From: a virus
IMG/VR virus record: IMGVR_UViG_3300049171_000092
Span: 21,279-85,278 of that record
Length of the DNA: 64,000 bases
Strand: one strand, 5' to 3'
Positions 3,794-58,347 of the stretch are shown in pieces. Each line of letters opens with the position of its first letter. Position 1 is the stretch's first letter. Position numbers and translations under genes: made by a program. The notes beneath the pieces were generated by a model that was given only the letters and a program-made list of their open reading frames with translations, had not been told where the DNA came from and searched no databases.

Positions 3794-4123
3794 CTATCGG
3801 CGCCGCCATCCTGGCTTTCCACCCATAGGGATGCTGCCCGTCGTCCAGATGCGGGAGCCCTTGCTCAGCTCCCGCCGCTCGGCGAGGAACTCCTGGTACT
3901 CCTCTCGCGCGTACTCCTGCACCTCCTCCAGCGTGGCGGCGTAACCGGCCCACACCTTGCCGGTCCCCATCACGCTCCAGATGGTGAACTCCCAGGACGG
4001 CACCTCGCCGTCGGCAACCTCCCTTTCGCTGAGCTCTTCCGGATGGATCTCGCCGATCCGGTCGTCGCCGTCGAAGAGGTCGAAGCGCTCCGGATCGTCG
4101 GTGGAGCGGATCTCCAGGGTCAT
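3794..4123 (-). CDS. hypothetical acidic 109-aa protein
   Basis: Track ORF; ATGA overlap with the recombinase stop codon. Confidence 0.55.
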   Translation of the reverse strand: MTLEIRSTDDPERFDLFDGDDRIGEIHPEELSEREVADGEVPSWEFTIWSVMGTGKVWAGYAATLEEVQEYAREEYQEFLAERRELSKGSRIWTTGSIPMGGKPGWRRR

Positions 4124-4689
4124 GCACGCTCCAGGTACCGGTAGATGGTGGTGCGGGCGACGCCGAGCTCGTTGGCGATGTCCTGCACGGTGTGCTTGCG
4201 CTTGCCGTCCTCGCCGAGCTCGTCGTACATCTCCTGCGCGAGCTTCACCTGCCGCGGCTTGAGTGCCTGCTTCCTGCCGCCGACTCGGCCGCGCGCCCGG
4301 GCGGCGGCCAGGCCGTCGTGGGTACGTTCGACCATCATCGAGTGCTCAAACTCGGCGATGGCGCCGAGGATTGTGAAGAACATGACCCCGGCCGGCGTCG
4401 AGGTGTCGATGCCCTGATCCAGGACGACGAGCGTGATGCCGTTGCCGCGGAGGCGTTCGGACAGCTCGAGCAGGTTCTTCGTGGAGCGGCCGAGCCGGTC
4501 CAGCTTGGTGATGACGAACTCGTCGCCTTCGCGCGCGGCGATGAGCGCCTTGTCGAGTTCGGGCCGGGAGGCGAGCTTTCCGGATGCCTTGTCGACGTAG
4601 ATCTGGTCGCAGTTCGCCTTGCGGAGGGCATCCTCCTGGGCTTCGGGGTTCTGGTCTCGGGTCGAGACGCGTCCGTATCCAATCCTCAC
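4120..4689 (-). CDS. small serine recombinase (resolvase/invertase family) with C-terminal HTH
   Basis: (M)RIGYGRVSTRDQ catalytic-serine motif, ..ITKLDRLGRS.., and a C-terminal IANELGVARTTIYRYL HTH. The track ORF extends to a TTG at 4707; I preferred the GTG at 4689 because it gives the canonical N-terminus. Confidence 0.85.
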   Translation of the reverse strand: MRIGYGRVSTRDQNPEAQEDALRKANCDQIYVDKASGKLASRPELDKALIAAREGDEFVITKLDRLGRSTKNLLELSERLRGNGITLVVLDQGIDTSTPAGVMFFTILGAIAEFEHSMMVERTHDGLAAARARGRVGGRKQALKPRQVKLAQEMYDELGEDGKRKHTVQDIANELGVARTTIYRYLERA

Positions 4690-4698
4690 AGACGGAGC

Positions 4699-4774
4699 GT
4701 AGCGCAAACGGGGGTTAGCGCAACATAGTTAAGGACACGAGTTTGCGTCACTTCCGGCCTGCGGTAACGCAGTT
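4699..4774. repeat. four copies of T(A/G)(A/G)CGCA(A/G) at the recombinase 5' end; candidate res/crossover or operator site
   Basis: GTAGCGCAAAC, GTTAGCGCAAC, GTTTGCGTCAC (inverted) and GGTAACGCAGTT lie within 75 bp of locally low-GC DNA. Confidence 0.4.
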
Positions 4775-37583: not shown

Positions 37584-38960
37584 TTACTTCCCGAAGATGG
37601 GCCGCGCGTACCGGGACCCGCCCGCCGTCTGCCGGGACGGGCCTCGCCGCGTAGGCGACTGCACCTGGGCCGCCCCCACCAGATCCACCGCGGCGACCAT
37701 GTACCGCATCGCGTCCATGCCGTGGTCGTCCTGCTTCAGCGGCTGCTCCTTCAGCCCTCCAGCCGCGCCCGGCTTGACCGCCCACACATAGCTGTTGATC
37801 TCCTCGGCGGTGGACGTCGGCTTGCCCGCGTCGGCGAGGTCCTGGTCCCGGTCGACCACGGAGTCCCGCAGGATGAACAGGCGCGGCTTGCCGTCGCCGG
37901 CCGGGCGGATCCGGGTCTGCACGGCTTGAATGCCTGGGGAGACCGTCTTCTTTGCGGCAGTCGTAACGAGGCCGGAGTGCCTTTCGAAGGTGGCCCGGTC
38001 TTCGGCGTCGTGGTCGCAGACCACCGCGGCTGGGTGCGGTTCGCCGGTCTCGCCGATGATCCGCTTTGCCTGCTTGGCGTGATCCTCGGCGAGCACCCGT
38101 GTCCTGTAGATCTCCCGGTACAGGTACAGGCGCCCGTCCCCGTCCTGTGCCCACCACTGGATCACCATGGGGTTCGTGAAGCCGAAGTCGATCGACATGT
38201 ACCGCTGCCAGGCATCTGGGACGTCGAACCGGTCGACCACGTGGACGGCGTCCTGCCACTCGTCGTAGATGATCCCCTCGGCGCTGACCCACTTGCCCCA
38301 CCGCAGACGCTGGTAGCGCGGCCCGGTGAGGCTGTCCAGGCGCGCCAGGTAGGCCTTGCCGTAGTCGGTCCATTCGCCGTTTTGGTAGAGGCGGGGGTTG
38401 TCTTCGTGGCGGCTGTAGAGGATGCGGCACCGGCCGGCGTCCGCCCGCAGTTTCAGGTGGTGGGAGGGTGGGCCGGGGTTGGTGCACATGATCAGCCGCT
38501 GGAGTGGGAGCACTCCGTTGCGGAGGCGGGACACGATCGTGTCGAGGTCTTCGGCTGTCACTTCGATCGCTTCGTCGACCAGGACGAGGTCGAATTCGGT
38601 GGACAGCAGCTTGGTGGGTCGGTCGAGGCCGCCGACGACGATGACGCTGCCGTTGGCGTACCGGTAGCTGGCGGGCTCCTGCGCCGACCCACCGAAGAAG
38701 TGCAGCAGGCCCGCAGCGATGGCTTCCTTCGCGACTTTCTCCCGGAAGCTGACCAGGGTCGACGACGTGAGTGAAGCATGGGTTTTACGGACGATCAGCG
38801 CGCGGGTGTGCGGGTTGTCGAGGCACTGGAGGTGCACGTACATGAGCGCGCCCACGCTCTTGCCCGTGCCTGCCGCACCGGAGAGGAGGATTTCGGTGTC
38901 CGTGGACCGGAAGAGTTCGCGGACGGCGCCGCGGGCTTCGAACGTGACGGTGTCAGGCAT
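37584..38960 (-). CDS. terminase large subunit
   Basis: Walker A GAAGTGKS, Walker B LVLVDEA, nuclease motifs ..SIDFGFTNP.. and ..DHGMDAMRY.. Confidence 0.92.
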   Translation of the reverse strand: MPDTVTFEARGAVRELFRSTDTEILLSGAAGTGKSVGALMYVHLQCLDNPHTRALIVRKTHASLTSSTLVSFREKVAKEAIAAGLLHFFGGSAQEPASYRYANGSVIVVGGLDRPTKLLSTEFDLVLVDEAIEVTAEDLDTIVSRLRNGVLPLQRLIMCTNPGPPSHHLKLRADAGRCRILYSRHEDNPRLYQNGEWTDYGKAYLARLDSLTGPRYQRLRWGKWVSAEGIIYDEWQDAVHVVDRFDVPDAWQRYMSIDFGFTNPMVIQWWAQDGDGRLYLYREIYRTRVLAEDHAKQAKRIIGETGEPHPAAVVCDHDAEDRATFERHSGLVTTAAKKTVSPGIQAVQTRIRPAGDGKPRLFILRDSVVDRDQDLADAGKPTSTAEEINSYVWAVKPGAAGGLKEQPLKQDDHGMDAMRYMVAAVDLVGAAQVQSPTRRGPSRQTAGGSRYARPIFGK

Positions 38961-45945: not shown

Positions 45946-45985
45946 GGACTCCTCCGGGGGTGGCGTTTTGTGGTGGTATGCCACC

Positions 45986-46130
45986 CGTGATGAGCGGCAT
46001 CGGTGCAGGTCAGGAGGCGTGATGGGGGCGTGATGCGGCGACCTGCCCCCGCGATGGGTTGCGGGGGTATCACGCCCCCATCACGGGAGGCGTCACGGGC
46101 CTGACCTGCGACGTCATGGGCGCGTCACGG
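45986..46130. repeat. array of nine CGTGAYG-type 8-bp repeats (4 direct, 5 inverted) including a 17-bp perfect inverted repeat; clt-, ori- or operator-like
   Basis: Direct copies: CGTGATGA 45986, CGTGATGG 46018, CGTGATGC 46029, CGCGATGG 46050. Inverted copies at 46068, 46078, 46091, 46112 and 46123. CGTGATGGGGGCGTGAT (46018-46034) is inverted against ATCACGCCCCCATCACG (46069-46085). Confidence 0.6.
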
Positions 46131-48266
46131 GCGCTCCCCTGTCAGAGACAAGATCGTTGCCAGGTAGTAGCCTCGGCCTCCCGACCACTGTTTGACGCGC
46201 ATGTCCACGCCCGGCGCAACCTCATTGGCTACCTCCCGGAGAGCCTTCAGGAACCGGTCGCGTGCCTGGTCGAAGTCCCCGTCCTCCTCGGGGGCCCAGT
46301 CGCTGGACGCTGCAGCGACGAGCTTGTACAACTCGGTGCTGGTCATCCGGTCCGGGTCACCGACGGAAGCGAACGCGGCACGGGCGAGGGCGATCGGCTC
46401 GGGGACCTTCGGCGCCGGGGCGCCAATGCGCCCCTTGCCGCCCTCACCGCCGGCCGCCGACGACACACCGGTCTCGGCGACGAGCTGCTCCTCGATCAGG
46501 TCCCGCCACTGTCCCGGCAAGCGCCCGGCGGCCTTGCGGATCTCGTAGGCCTCGGCGGCGACCCGCTTCTTGTCCTCGGGCTTCACCAGGTAGGAGCGGA
46601 CCTCGATCACGCCGGTCTCCGGGGTCGACAGCCAGGCGCGACCCGGCTGGTCGATCGGGATCTTCGACGCGTCGTAGCCCTGCCCGGTCATGCCGTCGCC
46701 GAGGATCGTGTTCGACGCGGTGCCGGACTCGGTCTTCATCGCCGCCCGGGCGACGTGGTTCTGCCGGAGCCGGCCGCGGATGACGTCGACCTCGGGCACC
46801 TGGGTGAGGCTGATGAGGGTGACACCGAGCGCGGCACCGACGGCGGCAATCTGTGACAGGTTCTCGGTGATCTCGTCCGCGTGGGGGCTGGTTCCCTTCG
46901 GGGTGTAGGTGGCGAGTTCGTCGACGATGAAGACCTCACGGCCGCCGAGGAGGCGCATGCACTCCTCGTAGTTGTCGTCGTCAATCTTTTCGTAGCCGTA
47001 CTCGTCGAGGAGGTCGGAGCGCCGGTCGATCTCCTCCTTGATCAGGCGGGTGATGACGGCGAGACGCTCCGGGCTGCGCTTCACGAACGTGGCCATGATC
47101 GGCGCGTAGGGGTTGTGCTCGGCGGTGCCCTTGCCGTCGAAGACGCGGACGTTCACCCACGGGTCCTTGGCAATGCCGAGCAGGATGTTCGCCAGCAGCA
47201 TGCCTTTACCGCGGCGGGTGGCGCCGCCGACGATGATGCTGCTGTCGCGGATCCACAGAGTGATCGGCTCACCGTGCTTACCGAACGCGACAGTGACGCC
47301 GTCGCGGAAGGTGTTCACGGGCCCGTCGTGGTCGATCAGCGGGGACCGGCGGACGATAGCGAACGGGTCGCTGCTGGACACCCACACCTTCAGCCGGGAT
47401 TCGCTGCTGCCGGGGCTGCGGTCGACGTCGAGGTCGATCCAGTCGCGGTGCACGGCGAGCGCGGACGCGATCTTCTGCTGCTGTTCCTTGCCGAGGGCGG
47501 CGGAGGCGGGGATGCCGGAGGGCAGGTCGACGGCGTAGGCGATGCCGGGGCCGTCGCTGTGGGGGATGCCGACGCCGCGGATCTCGGCCGCCCGCCGCTC
47601 GGGGACGACGCCGGCTTCGACGAGGACGCGCCGCATGGTGTCCTCGCCCAGGTGGCTGGTCCGGGTTGGCGCCTGCGCCGGGGCGGCGACGGGCTCTTCG
47701 GGCCGGCCGAACCAGGCGCCGGTGAGGATGACGGCGATGGCCATGAGGATCTGCACCCACAGCCCGCCAGCCACGGCGGCGATCGTGCCGCCGCCGACGA
47801 GGACCAGGCCGCTGATGCCGGTGCGAATCCAGTGCCGCGTCTTGTGGGCCTTGAACTCGGCGCGGCGCACGTTCAGCACGGCGCGGGCGCTCGACTCGGC
47901 GGCGGCCCGGTCCTTGCCCCGCGGCAGGTCCTTCGCTTCGCGGATCATCTGCTTGGCGGTGGCGATCTGCTGCCGGTAGTCGTCGTGCCGTGCCTCCCAC
48001 CACCTAAGGCACAGGCGCCGGTAGCCGCGCACCGACCAACCCAGGTAGTACGGCGAGTGGGTGGCGTGGAAGCGGACCGCATCGATCGCGTTGTCCCGGG
48101 CGTACACGGCCCACTGGCGGAGCTGCTCGCCGGACATCATCCATGCCGGGCGGGGGCGCTTCTCGAACTCGTAGACGGGGGCCGGCTCGGGGTCCTTGGT
48201 GAGCGTGGCGGTGATCTGCTCCCACTCCGGATCCGGGGTGCTGCTGGGGGTCGTCTCGATGCTCAC
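46125..48266 (-). CDS. FtsK/SpoIIIE-family DNA translocase (TraB-like), 713 aa
   Basis: Two N-terminal TM helices, Walker A GGATRRGKG, Walker B VFIVDE, ..LISLTQ.., and a C-terminal HTH-like ..RMTSTELYKLVAA.. Confidence 0.85.
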   Translation of the reverse strand: MSIETTPSSTPDPEWEQITATLTKDPEPAPVYEFEKRPRPAWMMSGEQLRQWAVYARDNAIDAVRFHATHSPYYLGWSVRGYRRLCLRWWEARHDDYRQQIATAKQMIREAKDLPRGKDRAAAESSARAVLNVRRAEFKAHKTRHWIRTGISGLVLVGGGTIAAVAGGLWVQILMAIAVILTGAWFGRPEEPVAAPAQAPTRTSHLGEDTMRRVLVEAGVVPERRAAEIRGVGIPHSDGPGIAYAVDLPSGIPASAALGKEQQQKIASALAVHRDWIDLDVDRSPGSSESRLKVWVSSSDPFAIVRRSPLIDHDGPVNTFRDGVTVAFGKHGEPITLWIRDSSIIVGGATRRGKGMLLANILLGIAKDPWVNVRVFDGKGTAEHNPYAPIMATFVKRSPERLAVITRLIKEEIDRRSDLLDEYGYEKIDDDNYEECMRLLGGREVFIVDELATYTPKGTSPHADEITENLSQIAAVGAALGVTLISLTQVPEVDVIRGRLRQNHVARAAMKTESGTASNTILGDGMTGQGYDASKIPIDQPGRAWLSTPETGVIEVRSYLVKPEDKKRVAAEAYEIRKAAGRLPGQWRDLIEEQLVAETGVSSAAGGEGGKGRIGAPAPKVPEPIALARAAFASVGDPDRMTSTELYKLVAAASSDWAPEEDGDFDQARDRFLKALREVANEVAPGVDMRVKQWSGGRGYYLATILSLTGERP

Positions 48267-52947: not shown

Positions 52948-53195
52948 GCGGCCTCCTCGGCAGCGGTGGGGGTAATCAGCGAACCGTTCAGGTAGGCCTC
53001 GACGGCCGACTCCGGGATACGGACACCGCGCGGACGGACCTTGCCGCCTCCGTTGCGGTGGGCGGTGAGTCGGCCAGAGGAGATGAGGTTGTAGACGGTG
53101 GAACGGGAGACGCGGAGGCGGCGGGCGACCTCCATTGCGTTCAGGAACTTCGGGACGTCGGCCACGTTGTCCGCGGCCGGGGCTTCGTGGCTCAA
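52944..53195 (-). CDS. excisionase-type (MerR-like HTH_17) DNA-binding protein, first gene of the leftward operon
   Basis: ..MEVARRLRVSRSTVYNLISSGRLTAHR..VRIPESAVEAYL... I preferred the TTG at 53195 with a GGGAG SD. The track ORF extends to 53240 and would overlap the operator. ATG 53135 is also possible. Confidence 0.6.
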   Translation of the reverse strand: MSHEAPAADNVADVPKFLNAMEVARRLRVSRSTVYNLISSGRLTAHRNGGGKVRPRGVRIPESAVEAYLNGSLITPTAAEEAA

Positions 53196-53237
53196 GGCTG
53201 CTCCCGGGTCGTTTGGGCAGGTGTGGGAAACCACCTC

Positions 53238-53292
53238 CACTTAGACGTGTAGGTGGCGTGTTCCAAGAGTGCTCCCACTTAGACGTCTAAGT
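53238..53292. promoter_or_regulatory. operators: half-palindromic CACTTAGACGTGTAGG and a perfect 16-bp palindrome ACTTAGACGTCTAAGT
   Basis: Same core as the 18-bp palindrome at 54172-54189; located just upstream of the Xis-type gene. Confidence 0.65.
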
Positions 53293-53321
53293 CAAGCGCT
53301 GCGAGTTACACACTGCCCAGG

Positions 53322-53356
53322 GACACAAAAAGGCCCCCACCGAAGGGCGGGGGCCT
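53322..53356 (-). terminator. rho-independent terminator of the GntR gene
   Basis: AGGCCCCCACC gaag GGCGGGGGCCT hairpin, followed on the minus strand by TTTTTGTGT. Confidence 0.7.
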
Positions 53357-53372
53357 AAGAGGAGCGTTGCCG

Positions 53373-54119
53373 TTATGCGTCGATCACGTAGTCCAGGATG
53401 TAGCTGCCGCCGTCCAAGCTCATCTCATTGACCTCCACGGCACGCCCGCTCTCTTCGAAAGCCGTGCGAACCACGCAGGCGACGGGCGTACCAGGACCCA
53501 GCTTCATGACGGCCAGCTCTCTCGAGTTGGGCATGCGCACGCGGACCTCCTCCTTGAAGCGAACCGGCCCATGCCCGGCCTCTTCCAAGCGCCTGTAGAT
53601 GCCCCCCTCGCCCGTGTCCTGCTCCATGATCTGCGTACCCTCGGCCAGGTCGAGAGGGATGTACGAGTCCGACATCAGCACCGGTCGACCATCCAGCACG
53701 TAGTGCCGACGGCGGCGAAGCACGGCCTGACCTCGCGGAATACCCAGCGCTTCCGCTACCCGTGCAGACGCCTCGAAGGTGTCGATCTCAAGCCCCTCCA
53801 CCTTCGGCTTAGCGTTGCGCACATCGATCGACCACATCGAAGTGCCAGCCCCCCAGACCTCACGCGACAGTCGATCATTGGCCAAACGCCGAATGGGCTT
53901 GAAGTCGCGGACTATGGCCTGCTTGCCCTGCCCTCCAACTGTGAGCCCTTGGTCTCGGAGGAGGCGCAGCGCCTTCGTGACAGTCTCACGGCCGGCCTTG
54001 AACTCCGCCATCACCTCGGACTCGCTGGGGATCGGGTCACCCGGTCGGTACTGGCCTCGCTCGATGCGAGCACGTAGCTCCTCAGCGATCTCCTTGTAGC
54101 CCATCTTGATCCCAGCCAA
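53373..54119 (-). CDS. GntR-family (HutC/UTRA-type) transcriptional repressor, Kor-like
   Basis: N-terminal wHTH ..YKEIAEELRARIERGQYRPGDPIPSESEVMAEFKAGRETVTKALRLLRDQGL.. and a C-terminal UTRA-like domain of about 160 aa; TTG start. Confidence 0.8.
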   Translation of the reverse strand: MAGIKMGYKEIAEELRARIERGQYRPGDPIPSESEVMAEFKAGRETVTKALRLLRDQGLTVGGQGKQAIVRDFKPIRRLANDRLSREVWGAGTSMWSIDVRNAKPKVEGLEIDTFEASARVAEALGIPRGQAVLRRRRHYVLDGRPVLMSDSYIPLDLAEGTQIMEQDTGEGGIYRRLEEAGHGPVRFKEEVRVRMPNSRELAVMKLGPGTPVACVVRTAFEESGRAVEVNEMSLDGGSYILDYVIDA

Positions 54120-54171
54120 GTCCGTCCCTCCACGAGTTCGGCTCCGGCGAACGACTTCTGTCGACCCGCTT

Positions 54172-54189
54172 GACTTAGACGTCTAAGTC
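54172..54189. promoter_or_regulatory. perfect 18-bp palindromic operator GACTTAGACGTCTAAGTC
   Basis: Lies 53 nt upstream of the GntR start, in the divergent intergenic region. Confidence 0.7.
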
Positions 54190-54304
54190 GCCGAATGTTG
54201 TCCAGTAGTTCCACGAGTACGCAACGCCACGGCCTGCGGCTACACAAGCCTCTCCTTGCCGCCAGGCCATGCCAACGTGCCCACGCGTCAACTGTACGCA
54301 TCGC

Positions 54305-54316
54305 TTCCACGTGGAA
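54305..54316. promoter_or_regulatory. perfect 12-bp palindrome TTCCACGTGGAA upstream of the GIY-YIG-GntR gene
   Basis: Lies 24 nt before the ATG at 54340; a GTTCCACG half-site is also at about 54209. Confidence 0.4.
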
Positions 54317-54339
54317 CGCCAGCAAGGCGAAGGGACATC

Positions 54340-54933
54340 ATGCCTGACCTCATCCAGCGAACAGCTCTATACCGCTTCTTCGACGCGAAGGGGAACTTGC
54401 TCTACGTCGGGATCGCCAAGGACCCGAAGCGGCGCTGGCGCCAGCACGCCATAGACAGCTCTGACACCTGGTGGCCGGACGTCCACCGGAAGGAAGTCGA
54501 GTGGCACGAGAATCGCGCGGAGGCCGAGGAGGCGGAAAAGCGGGCGATTCGCACTGAAGGACCCTCGTACAACACCGCGCACACGGCGACCGGCATCGAG
54601 AGACGGCCGGGATGGGTGAAGCCAGCACCAGCGCCTTCAGCTCGGGCTGAAGCCGCGCGCCACTCTCAGCAACAGCGCGGAATTTCGTTCAGCATGCAGA
54701 GTCGGAGCGCCAAGATGTCGATGCCTGATCTGGTGGCGCAGACGCTCCGCGACGAGATCAGTGCGGGCCAGTACACGCCCGACGTCCGTCTCCCTAGGGT
54801 CGCCGATCTCGCCAAAAGGTTCGGGATCAGTCGACCGACTGCGTCACTCGGCCTCCAGATCCTCAAGGATGAAGGAATCCTCGAGAGCCGCCCCGGTGTC
54901 GGGACCTTCGTCATCCGCGCTCCAGCTCGGTGA
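54340..54933 (+). CDS. GIY-YIG nuclease-like domain fused to a GntR-type winged HTH (197 aa)
   Basis: N-terminus ..LYRFFDAKGNLLYVGIAKDPKRRWRQH..EAEKRAIRTEGPSYN. C-terminus ..LRDEISAGQYTPDVRLPRVADLAKRFGISRPTASLGLQILKDEGILESRPGVGTFV. Confidence 0.7.
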   Translation: MPDLIQRTALYRFFDAKGNLLYVGIAKDPKRRWRQHAIDSSDTWWPDVHRKEVEWHENRAEAEEAEKRAIRTEGPSYNTAHTATGIERRPGWVKPAPAPSARAEAARHSQQQRGISFSMQSRSAKMSMPDLVAQTLRDEISAGQYTPDVRLPRVADLAKRFGISRPTASLGLQILKDEGILESRPGVGTFVIRAPAR

Positions 54934-55251
54934 CGCGGCCGGCGCATGCCGGTTGGCCTGTCTGTTTCGTGTTTGATTTGCGGCCTATTGTTCGCTTGCA
55001 TGGGTGATCGACCGAGCGAGCGGGGGGGCGCGGTCAACGCTCGGCCAGTGGGTCGGCGTGTTCCGGCCATTCCAAAATCGTCGTTCTCGGTTTCGTTGAA
55101 TCGGGGTGAAGTGCGCATTGTTGAAAATCCGCGCAGGTCGCCTCGGCTGGCATGCTCACGAAAGTGAGAATATGTCACTCCGCCGCAGGTCAGGGGCCTA
55201 CTGGATCCGTCCGGGCCCCGCGTGAGTGGCAGTAGGTTCGTCACGTCGCGC

Positions 55252-55341
55252 CCAGGACGGTCATCACCCGTCCTGGAACGCGAACGGCCGGGCGGTCATC
55301 ACCCGCCCGGCCAGCGCGACCAGCGAGTCATCACCTCGCTG
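55252..55341. other. three tandem stem-loops with an identical 7-nt loop TCATCAC and unrelated stems
   Basis: H1 55252-55276 (9-bp stem), H2 55286-55312 (10-bp stem), H3 55321-55341 (7-bp stem). They lie at the end of a 450-bp low-GC non-coding region. Confidence 0.7.
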
Positions 55342-55380
55342 ATCAGTCAACCCATCACTCGCTAGAGAGAAGGTCTCGCC

Positions 55381-55845
55381 GTGAGCGTAACGCACTCCGC
55401 CGTTGCAACGTCAGGTTGCTATGGCAGTGGGTCGTCGCCCGCTATTCCGTTGGGGCATCGTCTGGTGCCGGCGTCGATCGGTCGTCCGGGTCGTGTGCAG
55501 ACGGTCTACGTGCCGTGCCCCAGCTGGTGCCACGTCGACCATGTCGAGAACCGTGAGGTCGCCGTGGAAGACATCACGCACTACGGGCCGGGCGGTGGTG
55601 TGCAGGTGCCGGACATGAGTGATGACTCGACGGCTGTCCTGGAGTGGTACGTGAACATCATTGCGGATCCGGCGGCGTCGGACCCGCGGTTGCGGGTCGC
55701 TCATCTGGTCGTCGCGGACGGTGCCGGCGCGAATGACGCGCACCTATCGGAGGTGCAGGCGGAGGAGTTGGCGGGCGACCTGGAGCGTCTGGCGTCGGAC
55801 ATCCGGCGGGCGCTGGTGGTCTGCCGGGCAACCAACGCCGCGTAG
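55381..55845 (+). CDS. 154-aa protein with a CPSWC..H motif, of a type common on actinobacterial mobile elements
   Basis: Track ORF; GTG start. Confidence 0.55.
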   Translation: MSVTHSAVATSGCYGSGSSPAIPLGHRLVPASIGRPGRVQTVYVPCPSWCHVDHVENREVAVEDITHYGPGGGVQVPDMSDDSTAVLEWYVNIIADPAASDPRLRVAHLVVADGAGANDAHLSEVQAEELAGDLERLASDIRRALVVCRATNAA

Positions 55846-55931
55846 TCCCGCCGGTGTCGACGCGCTTGAGGTGGCGCGGGCCCGAGTGCGCCTGAAGGCC
55901 CCGCCCGGAAACCGGGCGGGGCCTTCACTGT

Positions 55932-56186
55932 TCAGCCGAGGTAGTCGATGTGTCTGATGTAGACCCGGCGGACGGGTGGCCCCTCGATGATCAGTAAGGC
56001 TGTGGAGGTGAGCCGCAGGAGCAGGAGCCGGCGGACGTCTCGGGGGTCGTCTTCGTCGCGGGGCTTGGTTCGCGCCCAGGGGTCTTCACAGACGGCAACG
56101 AGGGCACGCTCGAATTCGTCGCGTGCCTGTTCCGGGAGGGAGTCCCAGACAGCTTCGGCTGCCTCTGTGTAGCGCAGTTTGTACAC
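55932..56186 (-). CDS. RelE/ParE-like type II toxin (tentative)
   Basis: 84 aa. The pattern MYKLRYTEAAEAVWDSLPEQARDEF..RRVYIRHIDYLG and the small upstream partner gene fit a toxin-antitoxin pair. Confidence 0.5.
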   Translation of the reverse strand: MYKLRYTEAAEAVWDSLPEQARDEFERALVAVCEDPWARTKPRDEDDPRDVRRLLLLRLTSTALLIIEGPPVRRVYIRHIDYLG

Positions 56187-56204
56187 AGGGTAGAGACTGC
56201 CAGG

Positions 56205-56483
56205 TCAGGCTGCTCCGTGTGAGTGGAATCGTTCAGTTGCTCGCTGTAGTCGTTCGCTGCCGTCGATCCACTGGCCGGGGGGTTCCTCGCCGCGCCGCAC
56301 TGCCGCGACCGTGTCGTCGTCGAACGCCGTGTCCAGGTTGCTGGCGATGCGCTGCCATCGTGCGAAGACCGCGAGTAGCTGGTGGGCGGGTGCTCGATTG
56401 ATTTCGGCAAGGAAGCGCTGGGCGAGGTCAGGGCTCCCTAGGGCGTCGCGGATGGACTCGATCGTCCAGGGCTGCTCGCTCAT
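56205..56483 (-). CDS. putative antitoxin (92 aa)
   Basis: Internal ATG (MSEQPWTIES..); lies 18 nt upstream of the toxin gene; palindromic operators upstream. Confidence 0.45.
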   Translation of the reverse strand: MSEQPWTIESIRDALGSPDLAQRFLAEINRAPAHQLLAVFARWQRIASNLDTAFDDDTVAAVRRGEEPPGQWIDGSERLQRATERFHSHGAA

Positions 56484-56552
56484 GGTCGCCTCCGGCCGCG
56501 CCACTTTCACATCTCTCCCGCGCCCACGGTAGCGCACGGCCTAGGCCGCAGT

Positions 56553-56602
56553 GGTGGTACCACCTAGGAACGCTCCTAGGTGGCATCACCTGGCATATGC
56601 CA
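56553..56602. promoter_or_regulatory. operator cluster upstream of the toxin-antitoxin pair
   Basis: GGTGGTACCACC (12-bp palindrome), CCACCTAGG-N6-CCTAGGTGG inverted repeat, and TGGCATATGCCA (12-bp palindrome). Confidence 0.5.
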
Positions 56603-56674
56603 GAGGTCCGCTATCGGTCGAGGGCCCGACGACGATACCCCCGGCCCTCAAATGAGGGGCGGGGCATCGCGTTG

Positions 56675-57463
56675 TCAGCTGTCGCCGTCTGCTTCGACTG
56701 CAGCTCGGTCGTCGATGACGATGCGGACGGGTGTTCCGTCGCCGTGGCCGCGGTGAGGCCGGTCGATGATCTCTTGTACGGCGGTGGTGATCTTCTGGTG
56801 GATGTGGTCGGCGATGGCGCGGGTGACGGGGCTGTCGGCGTTGTGGGCGACGTGGTCGAGGCTGGTGATGGCGGCGACGAGGCTGGGCCCGGAGAAGCGG
56901 ACCTGGACGAACCCGTCGTCGTCGTGGACTTTGCCGGGGATGTGGAAGTGTTGTTCTCGTCCGGCGGTTTGGATGAGGAAGGCCCAGGTGTCGCGGTGGG
57001 CTTCGACGGTGGCGTGGGCGATGCCGGCGGCGGCGCGGAGGATGTCCGGATCGGGTCCGGATGCGGGTTCGGGCGTGGGTTCGGGTGTCGGCTGCTTGAC
57101 GGGCTGCGGCTCGGGTTCGGCGGGCTCCTCTCTGGCGGCCTGCACTTCCGGTGTCGGGGCCGGCGTCTCGCGTAGCCGGGTGTCCAGCTGGCCGAGGGCG
57201 CCGCGGATGGCGAGGAGTTCGCTGCCGATGTTGGCGAGGTGCCCGGTGGCGACGTCGCTGGTGCGATCCAGTGCCCTGCGGGCGACCTCCCGGACCTCGG
57301 CGAGGCCGCTGCTGATGGCCCTCGTGGCGTCCTGGCAGGCCTGGTCGATCATGTGTTGCTGGTCGTTGACCTGCTGCTTTAGAGCGGCGAGGTCTTTACT
57401 GATCTCGCCCAGCTGCTCCGCGATCCGCCCGAGCGTTTCCCGGTCTCCACTACCAAAAGGCAC
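56675..57463 (-). CDS. hypothetical 262-aa protein (N-terminal coiled coil, Pro/Glu-rich linker, C-terminal globular domain)
   Basis: Track ORF. Confidence 0.55.
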   Translation of the reverse strand: MPFGSGDRETLGRIAEQLGEISKDLAALKQQVNDQQHMIDQACQDATRAISSGLAEVREVARRALDRTSDVATGHLANIGSELLAIRGALGQLDTRLRETPAPTPEVQAAREEPAEPEPQPVKQPTPEPTPEPASGPDPDILRAAAGIAHATVEAHRDTWAFLIQTAGREQHFHIPGKVHDDDGFVQVRFSGPSLVAAITSLDHVAHNADSPVTRAIADHIHQKITTAVQEIIDRPHRGHGDGTPVRIVIDDRAAVEADGDS

Positions 57464-57753
57464 GCTTTCCCCCTCATGGTCACGAGTGACCTGGACAGGG
57501 TGATGCGGGGGGAATCCGTCGACAAGAACGCGATCCGGTCAGCGGGTGTGTCGGCCTCCTGGGTTGCCCGCTGATGGTGTCAGGGCTTGGGGTCGGCATG
57601 CTGTCTCCGGTCCGGCCGAGGGGCCGGTGTTGGGGTATTGCGCCCGTATCACGGTGGTGACGGTTCGTGTCGTGCTGGTGACGTGTGCGTGATAGTTGTA
57701 CTCGTGCGGGTGATCACCGCTTCTTTCCATCTGTGGTCCTTACGGGGGTTCTT

Positions 57754-58347
57754 ATGCGTAGGTTCGTTGTGTCTGCTGTCGTTGTCGCTGCGGTCGGTCT
57801 GCTCGCCGGGTGCGGTGGTGAGGAAAGTTCCGACGCGAAGGGTGGCGGCTCGGCCGGGAAGTCGGACATCGATGCCTGCGAGAAGGCGGTGGTCGAGCAG
57901 GTGAAGAAGTCGATGGGCGGGGACAAGGCGGCAAGGGACGCGGAGGAGTTGCCGGCGTCGTGTGCGGGGTTGGATGAGGCGACGAAGGAGAAGATCGCGG
58001 AGAGGGCTGCGAGTGCGGCCATCGCGGACGCCCTGGGCGGGGATGAGAAGGAGTCGTCTCAGGAGCCGGACGCGAAAGCCGACGTGAAGATCACCGGCTG
58101 CAGCAAGGACGAGTTCGGCTATCCGGTGGCGAAGCTCGAGGTCGTCAACTCCACCGATAAGAAGCAGGACATGAACGTGCAGGTGTCCTTCAACGGTGCG
58201 GACGGTACGCGTCTCGCGGAGGGCGGCACGGTCGTGTCCGCGCTGGAGCCGGGGCAGAAGGCGAAGGAGGACGCGATGGGGTTGAAGGAGATCTCGGGCA
58301 AGTTCACGTGCAAGGTCAGCAACGTGGACCGCTGGGAATCCCGGTAA
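57754..58347 (+). CDS. lipoprotein (197 aa)
   Basis: MRRFVVSAVVVAAVGLLAGC signal peptide with an LAGC lipobox; internal ATG of track ORF 57685..58347. Confidence 0.7.
   Translation: MRRFVVSAVVVAAVGLLAGCGGEESSDAKGGGSAGKSDIDACEKAVVEQVKKSMGGDKAARDAEELPASCAGLDEATKEKIAERAASAAIADALGGDEKESSQEPDAKADVKITGCSKDEFGYPVAKLEVVNSTDKKQDMNVQVSFNGADGTRLAEGGTVVSALEPGQKAKEDAMGLKEISGKFTCKVSNVDRWESR

Follow-up and report, generated by a model that had tools for sequence, protein, structure and literature searches.

In phage P22, the immI region reportedly encodes sar, an antisense RNA of ~69 nt whose target is said to be the antirepressor gene ant, a system reportedly described by Liao, Wu, Susskind and McClure in 1987. 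Plasmid copy number is regulated by countertranscripts, including RNA I of ColE1 (partner RNA II) and CopA of R1 (partner CopT), which control replication primers or rep mRNA. In both plasmids recognition begins by loop-loop kissing, and loop changes lead to new incompatibility groups while the stems are kept. In the immI regions of P1 and P7, a few base changes in the recognition sequences of the c4 antisense RNA, which acts on ant, define heteroimmune phages. In lambdoid phages, boxB occurs together with boxA in two separate operons downstream of early promoters, and the N gene is needed. Many antisense promoters of bacteria are transcriptional noise.

Here, a 64,000-nt stretch of DNA from a Streptomyces prophage (the window, in which all coordinates are given) was analysed, with a focus on three tandem hairpins, H1 to H3, upstream of position 55381. 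Comparison with related loci suggests that these hairpins are part of a conserved regulatory module of ~100-135 nt in Streptomyces prophage-like elements, which was found at ~36-38 related loci altogether; these counts do not represent independent events, because the loci are akin and were partly collected with patterns derived from the element itself. The module probably encodes a cis-antisense RNA that acts as a translational repressor of the first rightward gene, its specificity and the initial kissing contact being set by the hairpin loops. The RNA family is new, and the kind of regulator is already known. No description of the element turned up in the literature searched on DUF6907, on AICE/Nudix stem-loops and on Streptomyces antisense RNAs.

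Judged by analogy, the closest described systems are P22 sar/ant and ColE1 RNA I. As in P22, the predicted antisense promoter lies at the very start of the target gene, and transcription would proceed backward over the ribosome-binding site (RBS) of the target and the intercistronic region after the upstream gene; both belong to temperate phages and lie near repressor genes, and the silencing of one early or switch gene is proposed here as well. However, sar has no sequence in common with the module and no conserved-stem, variable-loop hairpin pair, and the module's proposed target, which encodes a DUF6907 protein or a member of a ~95-aa family, is of unassigned function and resides in an actinomycete host. 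The module resembles ColE1 RNA I and R1 CopA in the predicted ~100-nt antisense RNA with two or three stem-loops and loops of 6-7 nt, in which a loop change alters both partners at once and the stems are kept. It differs in that no replication gene follows it, no Rom-like gene was seen nearby, and its loops are often identical, whereas those within one plasmid RNA differ. As in c4 of P1 and P7, one small RNA would show two short recognition sequences, the role proposed for the module loops; unlike the predicted RNA, c4 is encoded upstream on the same strand, acts downstream after processing, and is not a convergent cis-antisense RNA.

The lambdoid boxB/N system shares with the module the repetition of one loop within a phage and its difference between phages, whereas boxA, an N gene and the two-operon layout were not found here. 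A lambdoid nut site with N was rejected: the window contains a single full module copy, the neighbours scanned against Pfam or PHROGs have no N-like or RNA-binding hit, and in two-copy relatives each copy stands before a small gene of its own. Type I toxin-antitoxin systems (hok/sok, and those of Clostridioides prophages; PMC7699646) also combine a gene with a convergent antisense RNA over its translation start, and they too occur on mobile elements, sometimes in more than one copy. In contrast to their hydrophobic peptides of <60 aa, the proteins downstream of the module are soluble-looking and of 90-154 aa. This class was likewise rejected, as no small hydrophobic toxin is present and the downstream proteins in the family are either 154-aa DUF6907 proteins or acidic proteins of 90-104 aa.

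Hairpins in the Non-coding Region

Three perfect hairpins with a common TCATCAC loop had been described in the initial annotation, and they were recovered with the same letters and coordinates:

H1, 55252-55276, plus strand: CCAGGACGG TCATCAC CCGTCCTGG, an extra hairpin with the same loop
H2, 55286-55312: GGCCGGGCGG TCATCAC CCGCCCGGCC
H3, 55321-55341: CAGCGAG TCATCAC CTCGCTG

All of them were predicted by RNA folding of each strand, and as a set they exceed chance. Perfect Watson-Crick hairpins with a stem of at least 9 bp and a loop of 3-9 nt number just 17 in the 64-kb window, and H1 and H2 are two adjacent members of this group. TCATCAC itself occurs in 18 copies (5.5 expected); only the copies in H1-H3 are enclosed by a stem of at least 7 bp, the other 15 having 0-2 bp. 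The surrounding region, from the stop codon at 54933 to the GTG at 55381, was confirmed as non-coding by GC3 frame analysis, its G+C content is indeed low (0.63-0.66 vs. ~0.70 for the window), and H3 ends 39 nt upstream of the GTG.

Two further elements of this region had been listed as hairpins. The GGGGCC/GGCCCC hairpin exists, and two relatives have compensatory changes in its stem (AGAGCG/CGCTCT in locus L154 and GGCCG/CGGCC in locus L134). The other, CTCAC-GAAA-GTGAG, is present within a block almost unchanged across three loci, but its pairing is doubtful; because the fourth pair is not kept in relatives, the element resembles a motif acting at the DNA level more than a hairpin.

Conservation of the Module Among Related Elements

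The core alignment comprised 26 loci, and a hold-out set of 12 new loci, fetched with a different anchor, gave 13 hits, seven of them strong. In the 26-sequence alignment, 99% of the cells are paired, eight pairs show double-sided changes, and none of 500 shuffles matched the observed pairing values, which supports the original proposal of selection for pairing. That proposal had also taken the loop to be conserved, the stems divergent, and the loop to be what is recognized. Within one element the description often holds, as both loops are identical on differing stems in 13 of the 26 loci and an identical loop pair was also found in three of the seven strong hold-out hits. Family-wide, the pairing is selected and the loops matter, but conservation resides in the stems of H2 and H3, which are near invariant with compensatory changes, whereas the loops are the most variable part of the module, at least six sequences being in use (TCATCAC, TCGCCA, TTCGCAC, TGGCGA, GTGCAA, CGCGAA, CTACCAA, and others).

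The same three-hairpin architecture, with an anti-Shine-Dalgarno sequence in the 5' hairpin SL1 (see below), is present in 26/26 loci, and the H2 stem is near invariant even between elements whose neighbouring proteins share as little as 18-33% identity. The module begins right after the upstream ORF's stop codon in several loci, and its end always lies ~45 nt ahead of the next RBS; its position thus ties it to the start downstream of it rather than to genes for replication or transfer. In the window it is placed immediately before the gene at 55381, in keeping with the structured non-coding RNA or 5' leader that had been suggested among its roles. Some elements carry a second, diverged module copy before a second gene. 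The loops of these second copies are unlike those of the first, and three of four have their own TANNNT followed by CAT within a few bases, L260b having none.

The Infernal/Rfam scan that had been proposed at the outset did not match a known RNA family: Rfam 15 gave zero matches at the gathering score over the 64-kb window, and permissive E-values over 54900-55450 gave chance-level matches only (at most 16.6 bits, E of at least 0.9). DNA and protein searches for the module and DUF6907 in 50,697 phage and 72,556 plasmid records gave no match, the plasmid-record matches to the DNA being only GntR genes and a few unrelated pieces.

A Predicted Antisense RNA on the Minus Strand

Sequence analysis directly shows the conserved architecture, the loop pattern and three independent strand-specific signals (the -10 element, the G·U pairs and the T-rich tail). 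These signals point to a minus-strand antisense transcript, the predicted parts and target of which are as follows:

55275..55377, minus strand: predicted cis-antisense RNA of ~103 nt, both ends predicted
55384..55389, minus strand: predicted -10 hexamer TACGCT, within codons 2-3 of the DUF6907 ORF
55349..55375, minus strand: SL1, 5' hairpin; its 5' arm bears CCUUCUCUC, complementary to the DUF6907 Shine-Dalgarno sequence
55318..55344, minus strand: H3' (SL2), H3 extended to a 10-bp stem via U·G and A-U/G·U pairs
55286..55312, minus strand: H2' (SL3), 10-bp G+C-rich hairpin, proposed intrinsic terminator
55276..55285, minus strand: T-rich tail GTTCGCGTTC after H2'; on the plus strand, the conserved AACGCGAAC motif 5' of H2
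55365..55373, plus strand: Shine-Dalgarno region GAGAGAAGG, proposed target of the antisense RNA
55381..55845, plus strand: DUF6907 gene, 154 aa, CPSWC...H motif (Pfam PF21848, E = 3.4e-18)

The transcript would start at ~55377, 7 nt after the -10 hexamer, and its 3' end would lie at ~55275, after the T-rich tail. A covariance model built from the 26 loci gave a single full-length hit in the window, at 55274-55377 on the minus strand (98 bits). In the window, the minimum free energy is -57.0 kcal/mol (minus strand) vs. -46.6 kcal/mol (plus strand). Averaged over the 26 loci, the values are -54.9 and -47.4 kcal/mol; the minus strand gives the more stable fold in every one of these loci and in 10 of the 13 hold-out hits. 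Together with the eight compensated pairs and with module G·U pairs restricted to the minus strand, this agrees with a folded RNA whose structure is selected on the antisense strand, as expected of a cis-antisense regulator. An antisense minus-strand transcript was absent from the options listed in the initial annotation.

A 5' hairpin of the SL1 type is predicted in 26/26 loci despite very different sequences, and its minus strand is stabler than the plus complement in 23/26 (mean -9.7 vs. -5.8 kcal/mol); the window copy includes G·U pairs. The 5' arm fully covers the Shine-Dalgarno region, and every aligned locus has a purine-rich GAAGG/GGAG block 6-9 nt ahead of its start codon. In minus-strand RNA the H3' loop has the sequence GUGAUGA, in plus-strand RNA UCAUCAC. 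At the base of its stem, alignment A3 contains U·G in 25/26 loci, A-U in 19 with G·U in 6, and G-C in 12 with G·U in 12, as well as a compensatory A-U to G-C change (19/7). No change that keeps pairing on the plus strand only was seen at the H3' base in the 26-locus alignment. In H2', seven pairs show double (compensatory) changes across the family, and the plus-strand leader folds into this hairpin as well.

The 10 nt after H2 contain on average 4.5 T on the minus strand vs. 1.8 on the plus strand, the minus strand being higher in 26/26 loci. Counted from the tails, at least three U are found in the first 8 nt in 25/26 minus-strand vs. 8/26 plus-strand cases, a threshold that served as the criterion for U-rich intrinsic terminators in Term-seq of S. 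clavuligerus (PMC8269248). The U-tract of H2' is weak (3-5 U), lies below the consensus terminator scan, and is T-rich on the minus strand only.

It was also considered that the element acts on the plus strand only, H1-H3 being mRNA structures and the minus-strand signals incidental, which we regard as unlikely. The hairpins would then be tandem U-less ('I-shaped') terminators or attenuators, RNase-processing or stabilising hairpins, or a put-like antitermination element. As far as the Watson-Crick cores of H1-H3 are concerned, the plus strand folds just as well; however, the three outer pairs of H3' are C·A or A·C mismatches there, and much of SL1 is mismatched as well. For the 467-nt intergenic region as a whole, the z-score favours the plus strand (-4.39 vs. 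-2.54 for the minus strand), which indicates that the plus-strand leader is likewise structured and may itself be functional. A terminator is suggested by the position of H2 directly after the upstream stop codon in several loci and by the fact that U-poor structured 3' ends are common in Streptomyces (PMC8269248), but the plus-strand tail after H2 is T-poor (0 T in the window), and in the window the upstream gene is already followed by a terminator-like hairpin at 54937-54958, ~320 nt before H1. Nor does a plus-strand element explain the loop pattern or the invariant TANNNT motif in the downstream ORF. A canonical intrinsic terminator on the plus strand was rejected on its T-poor tails, H1-H3 being uncalled by the scanner.

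H1 may be viewed separately. A third hairpin with a matching loop was found only in the window and in L122, and H1 is probably a diverged duplicate of H2 (GGACGG/CCGTCC vs. GGGCGG/CCGCCC). Because it lies beyond the predicted antisense terminator, it most likely belongs to the plus-strand mRNA leader only; H1 of L122 has one G·U pair that fits the plus strand and is an A·C mismatch on the minus strand, a point in favour of a plus-strand element.

Putative Promoter Signal Within the Downstream ORF

On the minus strand, T-A-NNN-T is invariant in 26/26 loci. Its position is within codons 2-5 of the ORF that follows, 58-70 nt away from H3, whatever the downstream protein family, start position or frame, and the TANNNT background in the window is 0.6 per kb per strand. 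In the hold-out set, the motif was found at the predicted place in 10 of 13 hits, including all seven strong ones, mostly with CAT, the complement of the start codon, within a few bases after it. Rare GTA or TTA codons are forced by the motif at codon 3-5 in 22/26 ORFs, and in the other four its TA is out of frame; GTA accounts for 3.2% of the Val codons here, and TTA for 0.14% of the Leu codons. At the sequence level, a putative promoter opposite the target and near its 5' region, as in cis-antisense systems, is present.

A conserved -35 element was not found in the aligned loci, and both the minus-strand promoter and H2' were uncalled by a consensus promoter/terminator scanner. Conservation across ~36 loci argues against reading the putative promoter as noise. 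A plus-strand promoter within the module was ruled out, there being no plus-strand TANNNT from H2 to the start codon. The leftward ORF at 54666-55244, the sole minus-strand ORF, was rejected as the promoter's client, as it fails the GC3 test and overlaps a Pfam-supported gene; upstream genes elsewhere are on the plus strand.

Proposed Target Gene and Neighbouring Genes

The DUF6907 gene is proposed to be the gene under translational control. Its protein gave no hit in PHROGs, NCBIfam, PADLOC or PDB sequences beyond the DUF assignment of Pfam. Two GntR-family genes adjoin the module, and no replication, Rep or relaxase gene is located next to it. Pfam, PHROGs and related scans detected no RNA-binding domain among the neighbouring genes.

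The last result bears on the view of the hairpins as a protein-binding array, in which an element-specific RNA- (or hairpin-DNA-) binding protein, probably a dimer, reads the identical loops displayed on invariant stems, as N reads boxB in lambdoid phages. Such a protein could act alongside or in place of RNA-RNA pairing, and this is held to be decidedly improbable. Identical loops on differing stems in half of the core alignment and in three strong hold-out hits would suit it, as would the use of at least six loop sequences, since concerted change is expected from co-evolution with a trans-acting factor, but the loops are non-identical in about half of the elements. In the close relative L154, whose DUF6907 protein is 95% identical, both the loops and the upstream regulator cassette differ. 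However, none of the candidate proteins follows the loop in its variation: DUF6907, GntR/UTRA and GIY-YIG-GntR neighbours showed no co-variation with it, the TCATCAC loop being common to DUF6907 proteins of 18-66% identity, the 95% identical one having TCGCCA instead, and GntR/UTRA homologues at 27-55% identity accompanying one same loop.

A DNA-level signal (a single-strand origin or primosome site, an extruded-hairpin recombination or packaging site, or tandem double-stranded operators) is very improbable. Three tandem hairpins are indeed arranged as in G4-type origins, but the origin or primosome role suggested earlier found no support, since no replication initiator or relaxase gene is adjacent, the module directly follows the upstream stop in several loci, and module and DUF6907 are absent from the plasmid and phage records. 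Operators would suit the two GntR-family genes next door and the pseudo-palindromic GGTCATCACC, which resembles the GntR-type site GT-N-AT-N-AC; against this, the pseudo-palindrome and the stem do not share a centre, conservation is lowest in the putative operator core while the flanking inverted repeats are conserved and compensated, for which a double-stranded operator has no need, and the G·U asymmetry and U-rich tail are features of RNA.

Display of a 16S rRNA 3'-tail sequence by the plus-strand loops, speculated on at first, was ruled out, as it applies to the TCATCAC allele only and is lost in relatives with other loops; the actual anti-Shine-Dalgarno, CCUUCUC, belongs to the predicted minus-strand RNA and simply follows from its antisense orientation to the RBS. 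Of the link once drawn to the repeat array at 46 kb, the common hexamer CATCAC/GTGATG stands, but nothing more is shared: the hairpins bear GGTGATGA, the array unit is CGTGAYG, and the loops vary among relatives, and the shared hexamer is probably a coincidence. A tRNA or attP remnant was dismissed (ARAGORN found none, and the stems and loops are unlike a T-arm or anticodon arm), as were the RNA-based prophage origins of mycobacteriophages, which are a different system.

Proposed Mode of Action

For the favoured cis-antisense regulator, we infer the production of the RNA, its ends, the loop kissing and the repression from the sequence features above. The minus-strand promoter, with its -10 in DUF6907 codons 2-3, would give a small antisense RNA from ~55377 to ~55275, in which SL1 carries the Shine-Dalgarno complement, SL2 is the complement of H3 and SL3 that of H2, and SL3 with the U-rich tail would end the transcript. 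The plus-strand mRNA leader would present the mirror hairpins H3 and H2, plus the extra copy H1 in the window. The complementary loops may make the first RNA-RNA contact by loop-loop kissing, and pairing would then extend across the RBS, so that translation of the first rightward gene is blocked or the duplex is opened to RNase III. Because both RNAs come from one DNA, a loop mutation preserves their complementarity; the two RNAs therefore stay complementary, and the loops, carried on fixed stems, would be free to diverge and may set element-specific specificity.

The frequent identity of loops within one element is unaccounted for by this plain antisense model. A tentative extension, which we consider doubtful, is that the matched hypervariable loops form an address code for cross-regulation, an RNA-based heteroimmunity among Streptomyces prophages. 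Each prophage may carry two or three copies of one 6-7-nt loop on invariant stems, with the loop sequence changing in concert in both hairpins, and this may decide between which relatives, whether co-resident or superinfecting, the switch genes are cross-regulated. Readers of the code might be the complementary RNA and also a putative loop-specific factor. If true, it would be a class of specificity determinant new for actinomycete phages.

If the antisense RNA is real, it represents a conserved regulator absent from Rfam 15 across a family of Streptomyces prophage-like elements, located at the regulatory region of elements that are absent from sequenced phage and plasmid collections. It would offer a handle on the silencing of one early gene in these elements and, for DUF6907 proteins, a first feature related to function that can be tested. 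The loops could serve as immunity or compatibility determinants, and the stem scaffold with exchangeable loops is a possible orthogonal RNA repressor set for high-G+C hosts. The TTA codons that arise from the promoter motif would add dependence on the bldA tRNA in some elements.

Flanking Elements

Upstream of the hairpins, a further block is shared with two relatives:

55103..55200, no strand assigned: upstream block with the invariant core CACGAAAGTGAGAATATGTCA between CGCAGGTC direct repeats

The block is almost invariant among the window, L154 and L134, and the CGCAGGTC repeats begin at 55132 and 55184. It is a candidate for the promoter and operator of the plus-strand target mRNA, in which TG-A-GAATAT may, on its sequence, be an extended -10. 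On the other side, 3' of the DUF6907 gene, a 16-bp bidirectional terminator-like hairpin is located at 55893-55927.

The Hairpins and Their Genomic Setting

The three hairpins H1, H2 and H3 lie in a non-coding region just upstream of the DUF6907 gene, and their coordinates, perfect stems and common loop TCATCAC are exactly as given in the initial annotation. Perfect hairpins whose stem reaches 9 bp or more number only 17 over the 64 kb, with H1 and H2 as adjacent members of this set. The heptamer TCATCAC occurs 18 times in the window against 5.5 expected, and the only stem-borne copies are the loops of H1-H3. The principal features are as follows:

~10 kb to 53 kb, minus strand: siphovirus-type prophage, including minor tail proteins, a MuF-like protein and the large terminase
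46125-48266, minus strand: FtsK-like protein
also among the prophage genes: HTH_17 protein
53373-54119: GntR/UTRA regulator
54256-54933, plus strand: GIY-YIG and GntR-wHTH fusion gene
447 bp between the fusion gene and the DUF6907 gene: non-coding region with the hairpins
55252-55276, plus strand: H1, stem of 9 bp
55286-55312, plus strand: H2, stem of 10 bp
55321-55341, plus strand: H3, stem of 7 bp
55381-55845, plus strand: DUF6907 gene
55893-55927: terminator-like hairpin with 16 perfect base pairs, TGAAGGCCCCGCCCGG AAA CCGGGCGGGGCCTTCA, between the DUF6907 gene and convergent minus-strand genes

The G+C content of the window (~0.70) is that of actinomycete DNA, and every one of its nearest matches, at DNA and protein level, comes from Streptomyces. 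The large terminase reaches no more than 55% identity to its counterparts in Thermobifida phage P1312 and Streptomyces phages, and no nucleotide-level relative of the 5 kb around the hairpins (53000-58000) was found among 50,697 sequenced phages. The hairpin at 55893-55927 is likely a bidirectional terminator, and DUF6907 would then be monocistronic in the window. The fusion protein encoded at 54256-54933 combines a GIY-YIG nuclease-type domain (residues 38-106) with a C-terminal GntR winged helix (160-219), which is unusual. The prophage pairs an FtsK/SpoIIIE-like translocase gene with standard head and tail genes (46125-48266 and 37584-38960). A gene for a serine resolvase with Resolvase and HTH_7 domains (4120-4707), at the window's far end, suggests a separate Tn3-type element outside the prophage.

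Distribution of the H2-H3 Module

DNA-pattern and protein searches of IMG/VR and GTDB genomes yielded 25 further loci with the H2-H3 unit (the module), and 12 hold-out loci came from a subsequent search that used another anchor; the loci are mutually related, and part of the collection was made with patterns taken from the element itself. All named genomes among the relatives are Streptomyces, and sequenced phage and plasmid collections contained no copy of the module. The related loci are syntenic with 49-63 kb of the window, which places the module inside a family of prophage-like elements as one of their integral parts. Upstream it is flanked either by GIY-YIG/GntR genes or by an HTH-NUDIX gene and then a NUDIX gene; the downstream neighbour is DUF6907 or an unrelated family of ~95 aa. 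The module start coincides with the stop codon of the upstream ORF in several loci, and its end always lies ~45 nt 5' of the RBS and start codon. H1 with a matching loop was found only in the window and L122. Small GIY-YIG-like ORFs were observed immediately upstream of the module in six loci (L014, L125, L134, L154, L169 and L215).

In some relatives a second small gene, in L275 a second DUF6907 paralogue, is preceded by a diverged further copy of the module:

L275: 13832-13933
L163: 6149-6259
L260: 2150-2248
L158: 1781-1895

The loops of these copies are unlike the first-copy loops of the same element, and three of the four copies (those of L275, L163 and L158, not L260) have their own TANNNT with CAT within a few bases. 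The unit therefore behaves as a gene-plus-antisense cassette.

Conserved Stems and Variable Loops

The loop was originally regarded as the conserved part and the stems as the free part; across the family the situation is reversed, the stems being conserved and the loops the most variable segment. The H2 stem is GGCCGGGCGG/CCGCCCGGCC, with the compensated variants GGGTGG/CCACCC and GGACGG/CCGTCC, and is entirely different in L169 only; H2 is identical even among elements whose DUF6907 proteins share just 18-33% identity. For H3 the stem reads CAGCGRG/CYCGCTG, and here A-U is replaced by G-C in a compensated manner. The proposed stem compensation was borne out by the 26-sequence alignment, in which 99% of cells are paired, eight pairs show double changes, and none of 500 shuffles matched this result.

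The loop variants include TCATCAC, TCGCCA, TTCGCAC, TGGCGA, GTGCAA, CGCGAA, CTACCAA and TACCAC. H2 and H3 nevertheless have the same loop in 13/26 loci, with six different sequences, in 9 of the 20 loci not gathered by the TCATCAC pattern, and in three of the seven strong hold-out matches. L154, a close relative with a 95% identical DUF6907, has TCGCCA in both hairpins. This concerted loop identity within an element is an unusual feature.

Signals on the Minus Strand

Three independent features of the aligned sequences, namely a -10 element, folding with G·U pairs, and a U-rich tail, point to the minus strand. Firstly, three invariant alignment positions just inside the downstream ORF read T-A-N-N-N-T on the minus strand, a -10 hexamer. 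Exactly one TANNNT is present per locus, 58-70 nt from H3 (26/26), independent of protein family, start-codon position and frame, whereas the background frequency is 0.6 per kb and strand. A -35 element was not found in the aligned loci. The hexamer imposes a rare codon, GTA or TTA, at codon 3-5 in 22 of the 26 downstream ORFs, although GTA accounts for 3.2% of the window's Val codons and TTA for 0.14% of its Leu codons; the remaining four have the TA in another frame, which puts the constraint on nucleotides and not on protein. Among the hold-out loci, TANNNT stands at the predicted position in all seven strong matches and in 10/13 of all matches, mostly with CAT, the start-codon complement, a few bases on. 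The window has GTA (55387-55389), and seven loci have TTA (L134, L163, L207, L249, L260, L266 and L267). As the TTA codon is read by the developmentally regulated bldA tRNA, the target gene in those seven elements may also be bldA-dependent.

Secondly, the minus-strand RNA folds better in 26/26 loci (-54.9 vs -47.4 kcal/mol for the plus strand). On this strand three further pairs, U·G (25/26), A-U or G·U (19 and 6) and G-C or G·U (12 and 12), lengthen the H3 stem to 10 bp; all of these are mismatches on the plus strand. Thirdly, T accounts for 4.5 of the 10 nt that follow H2 on the minus strand vs 1.8 on the plus strand, with minus exceeding plus in 26/26. Counted from the printed tails, at least three U in the first 8 nt were found in 25/26 minus-strand and 8/26 plus-strand tails, a threshold applied to U-rich intrinsic terminators in S. 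clavuligerus (PMC8269248). The U-tract after the minus-strand counterpart of H2 is weak, and a consensus scan makes no terminator call there.

The Predicted Antisense RNA

Based on these alignments, we lean towards reading the module as the gene of an antisense RNA. In the window, its predicted parts are as follows:

55389-55384, minus strand: -10 element TACGCT
55375-55349, minus strand: 5' hairpin SL1, with a 5' arm complementary to the Shine-Dalgarno sequence
55344-55318, minus strand: hairpin H3', counterpart of H3
55312-55286, minus strand: hairpin H2', counterpart of H2, followed by the tail

The RNA would start at ~55377, 7 nt past the -10 element, and read 5'-GAGACCUUCUCUCUAGCGAGUGAUGGGUUGACUGAUCAGCGAGGUGAUGACUCGCUGGUCGCGCUGGCCGGGCGGGUGAUGACCGCCCGGCCGUUCGCGUUCC. 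A fourth CATCAC, at 55352, belongs to the 3' arm of SL1. The three-hairpin layout is predicted in 26/26 loci despite widely different SL1 sequences, and a covariance model detects a single complete copy in the window (98 bits). Cis-antisense RNAs that owe their specificity to the loops of their stem-loops are a well-known kind; the family is new, with no match in Rfam and no account of it in the publications searched. Neither Rfam nor tRNA scans gave a hit anywhere in the window.

Such an RNA would start, convergently, within the first codons of the target ORF, and its loops would make contact with their complements in the mRNA leader, namely the loops of H3 and H2 and, in the window element, also of H1. 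Pairing would then extend across the RBS, and translation of the first rightward gene would be blocked or the duplex cleaved. Because a loop mutation alters both RNA partners together, the loops would be free to drift or be driven apart, setting element-specific recognition, while stems, promoter and terminator stay fixed. The module adjoins repressor-type genes, and by analogy with P22 sar/ant and P1 c4/ant it may be speculated that the controlled gene is a switch gene such as an antirepressor; domain, protein-family and structure-sequence searches assigned no function to DUF6907.

Identical loops within one element are not required by a plain antisense model; with them, any of the target loops, H1 included, could be contacted by either loop of the RNA. 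Alternatively, they may signal a dimeric loop-binding factor. A protein-binding hairpin array, which the matched loops fit, could coexist with the antisense RNA, but there is no candidate protein, and no neighbouring protein tracking the loop sequence was found. A terminator or leader acting on the plus strand only would suit the position after stop codons, yet this explanation fails against the tail, the G·U pattern and the invariant -10 element. The poorest fit is that of DNA-level signals (ssi, operator): conservation is lowest in the supposed operator core, and it is the stems that show compensation.

The Remaining Intergenic Region

The whole intergenic region has a better folding z-score on the plus strand than on the minus strand. 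The window, L154 and L134 share a nearly invariant block at 55103-55200, with a partly palindromic core CACGAAAGTGAGAATATGTCA between direct repeats CGCAGGTC at 55132 and 55184. The block holds TG-A-GAATAT on the plus strand and, on the minus strand, TATTCT; it is a candidate for the promoter and operator of the target mRNA. The GNRA-type hairpin noted initially lies inside this block, and its structure is not kept in relatives. The GGGGCC...GGCCCC hairpin (55193-55220) fared better, being fully compensated in L154 (AGAGCG/CGCTCT) and L134 (GGCCG/CGGCC) with a partly conserved loop (three sequences in all), and may be a further structured leader element. The plus-strand structure, the block and this hairpin are probably components of the target mRNA's promoter, operator and leader. 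Directly past the terminator-like hairpin of the upstream gene (54937-54958), a 75-bp block (54948-55022) is 93% identical to L154 and holds TATTGT (54986-54991), the region's only other plus-strand TANNNT within a conserved block.

The Array at 46 kb

The hexamer CATCAC is indeed common to the hairpin loops and the 46-kb array, as initially noted; the supposed link is probably coincidental. The array is a dense set of CGTGAYG heptamers (45985-46130) that fills the gap separating the minus-strand FtsK-like gene (46125-48266), past its stop, from the gene that follows; three copies on one strand and at least three inverted ones form a 17-nt perfect inverted repeat (46018-46034/46069-46085). In position and make-up it is reminiscent of clt/TRS sites, which are bound by Streptomyces TraB-type translocases.
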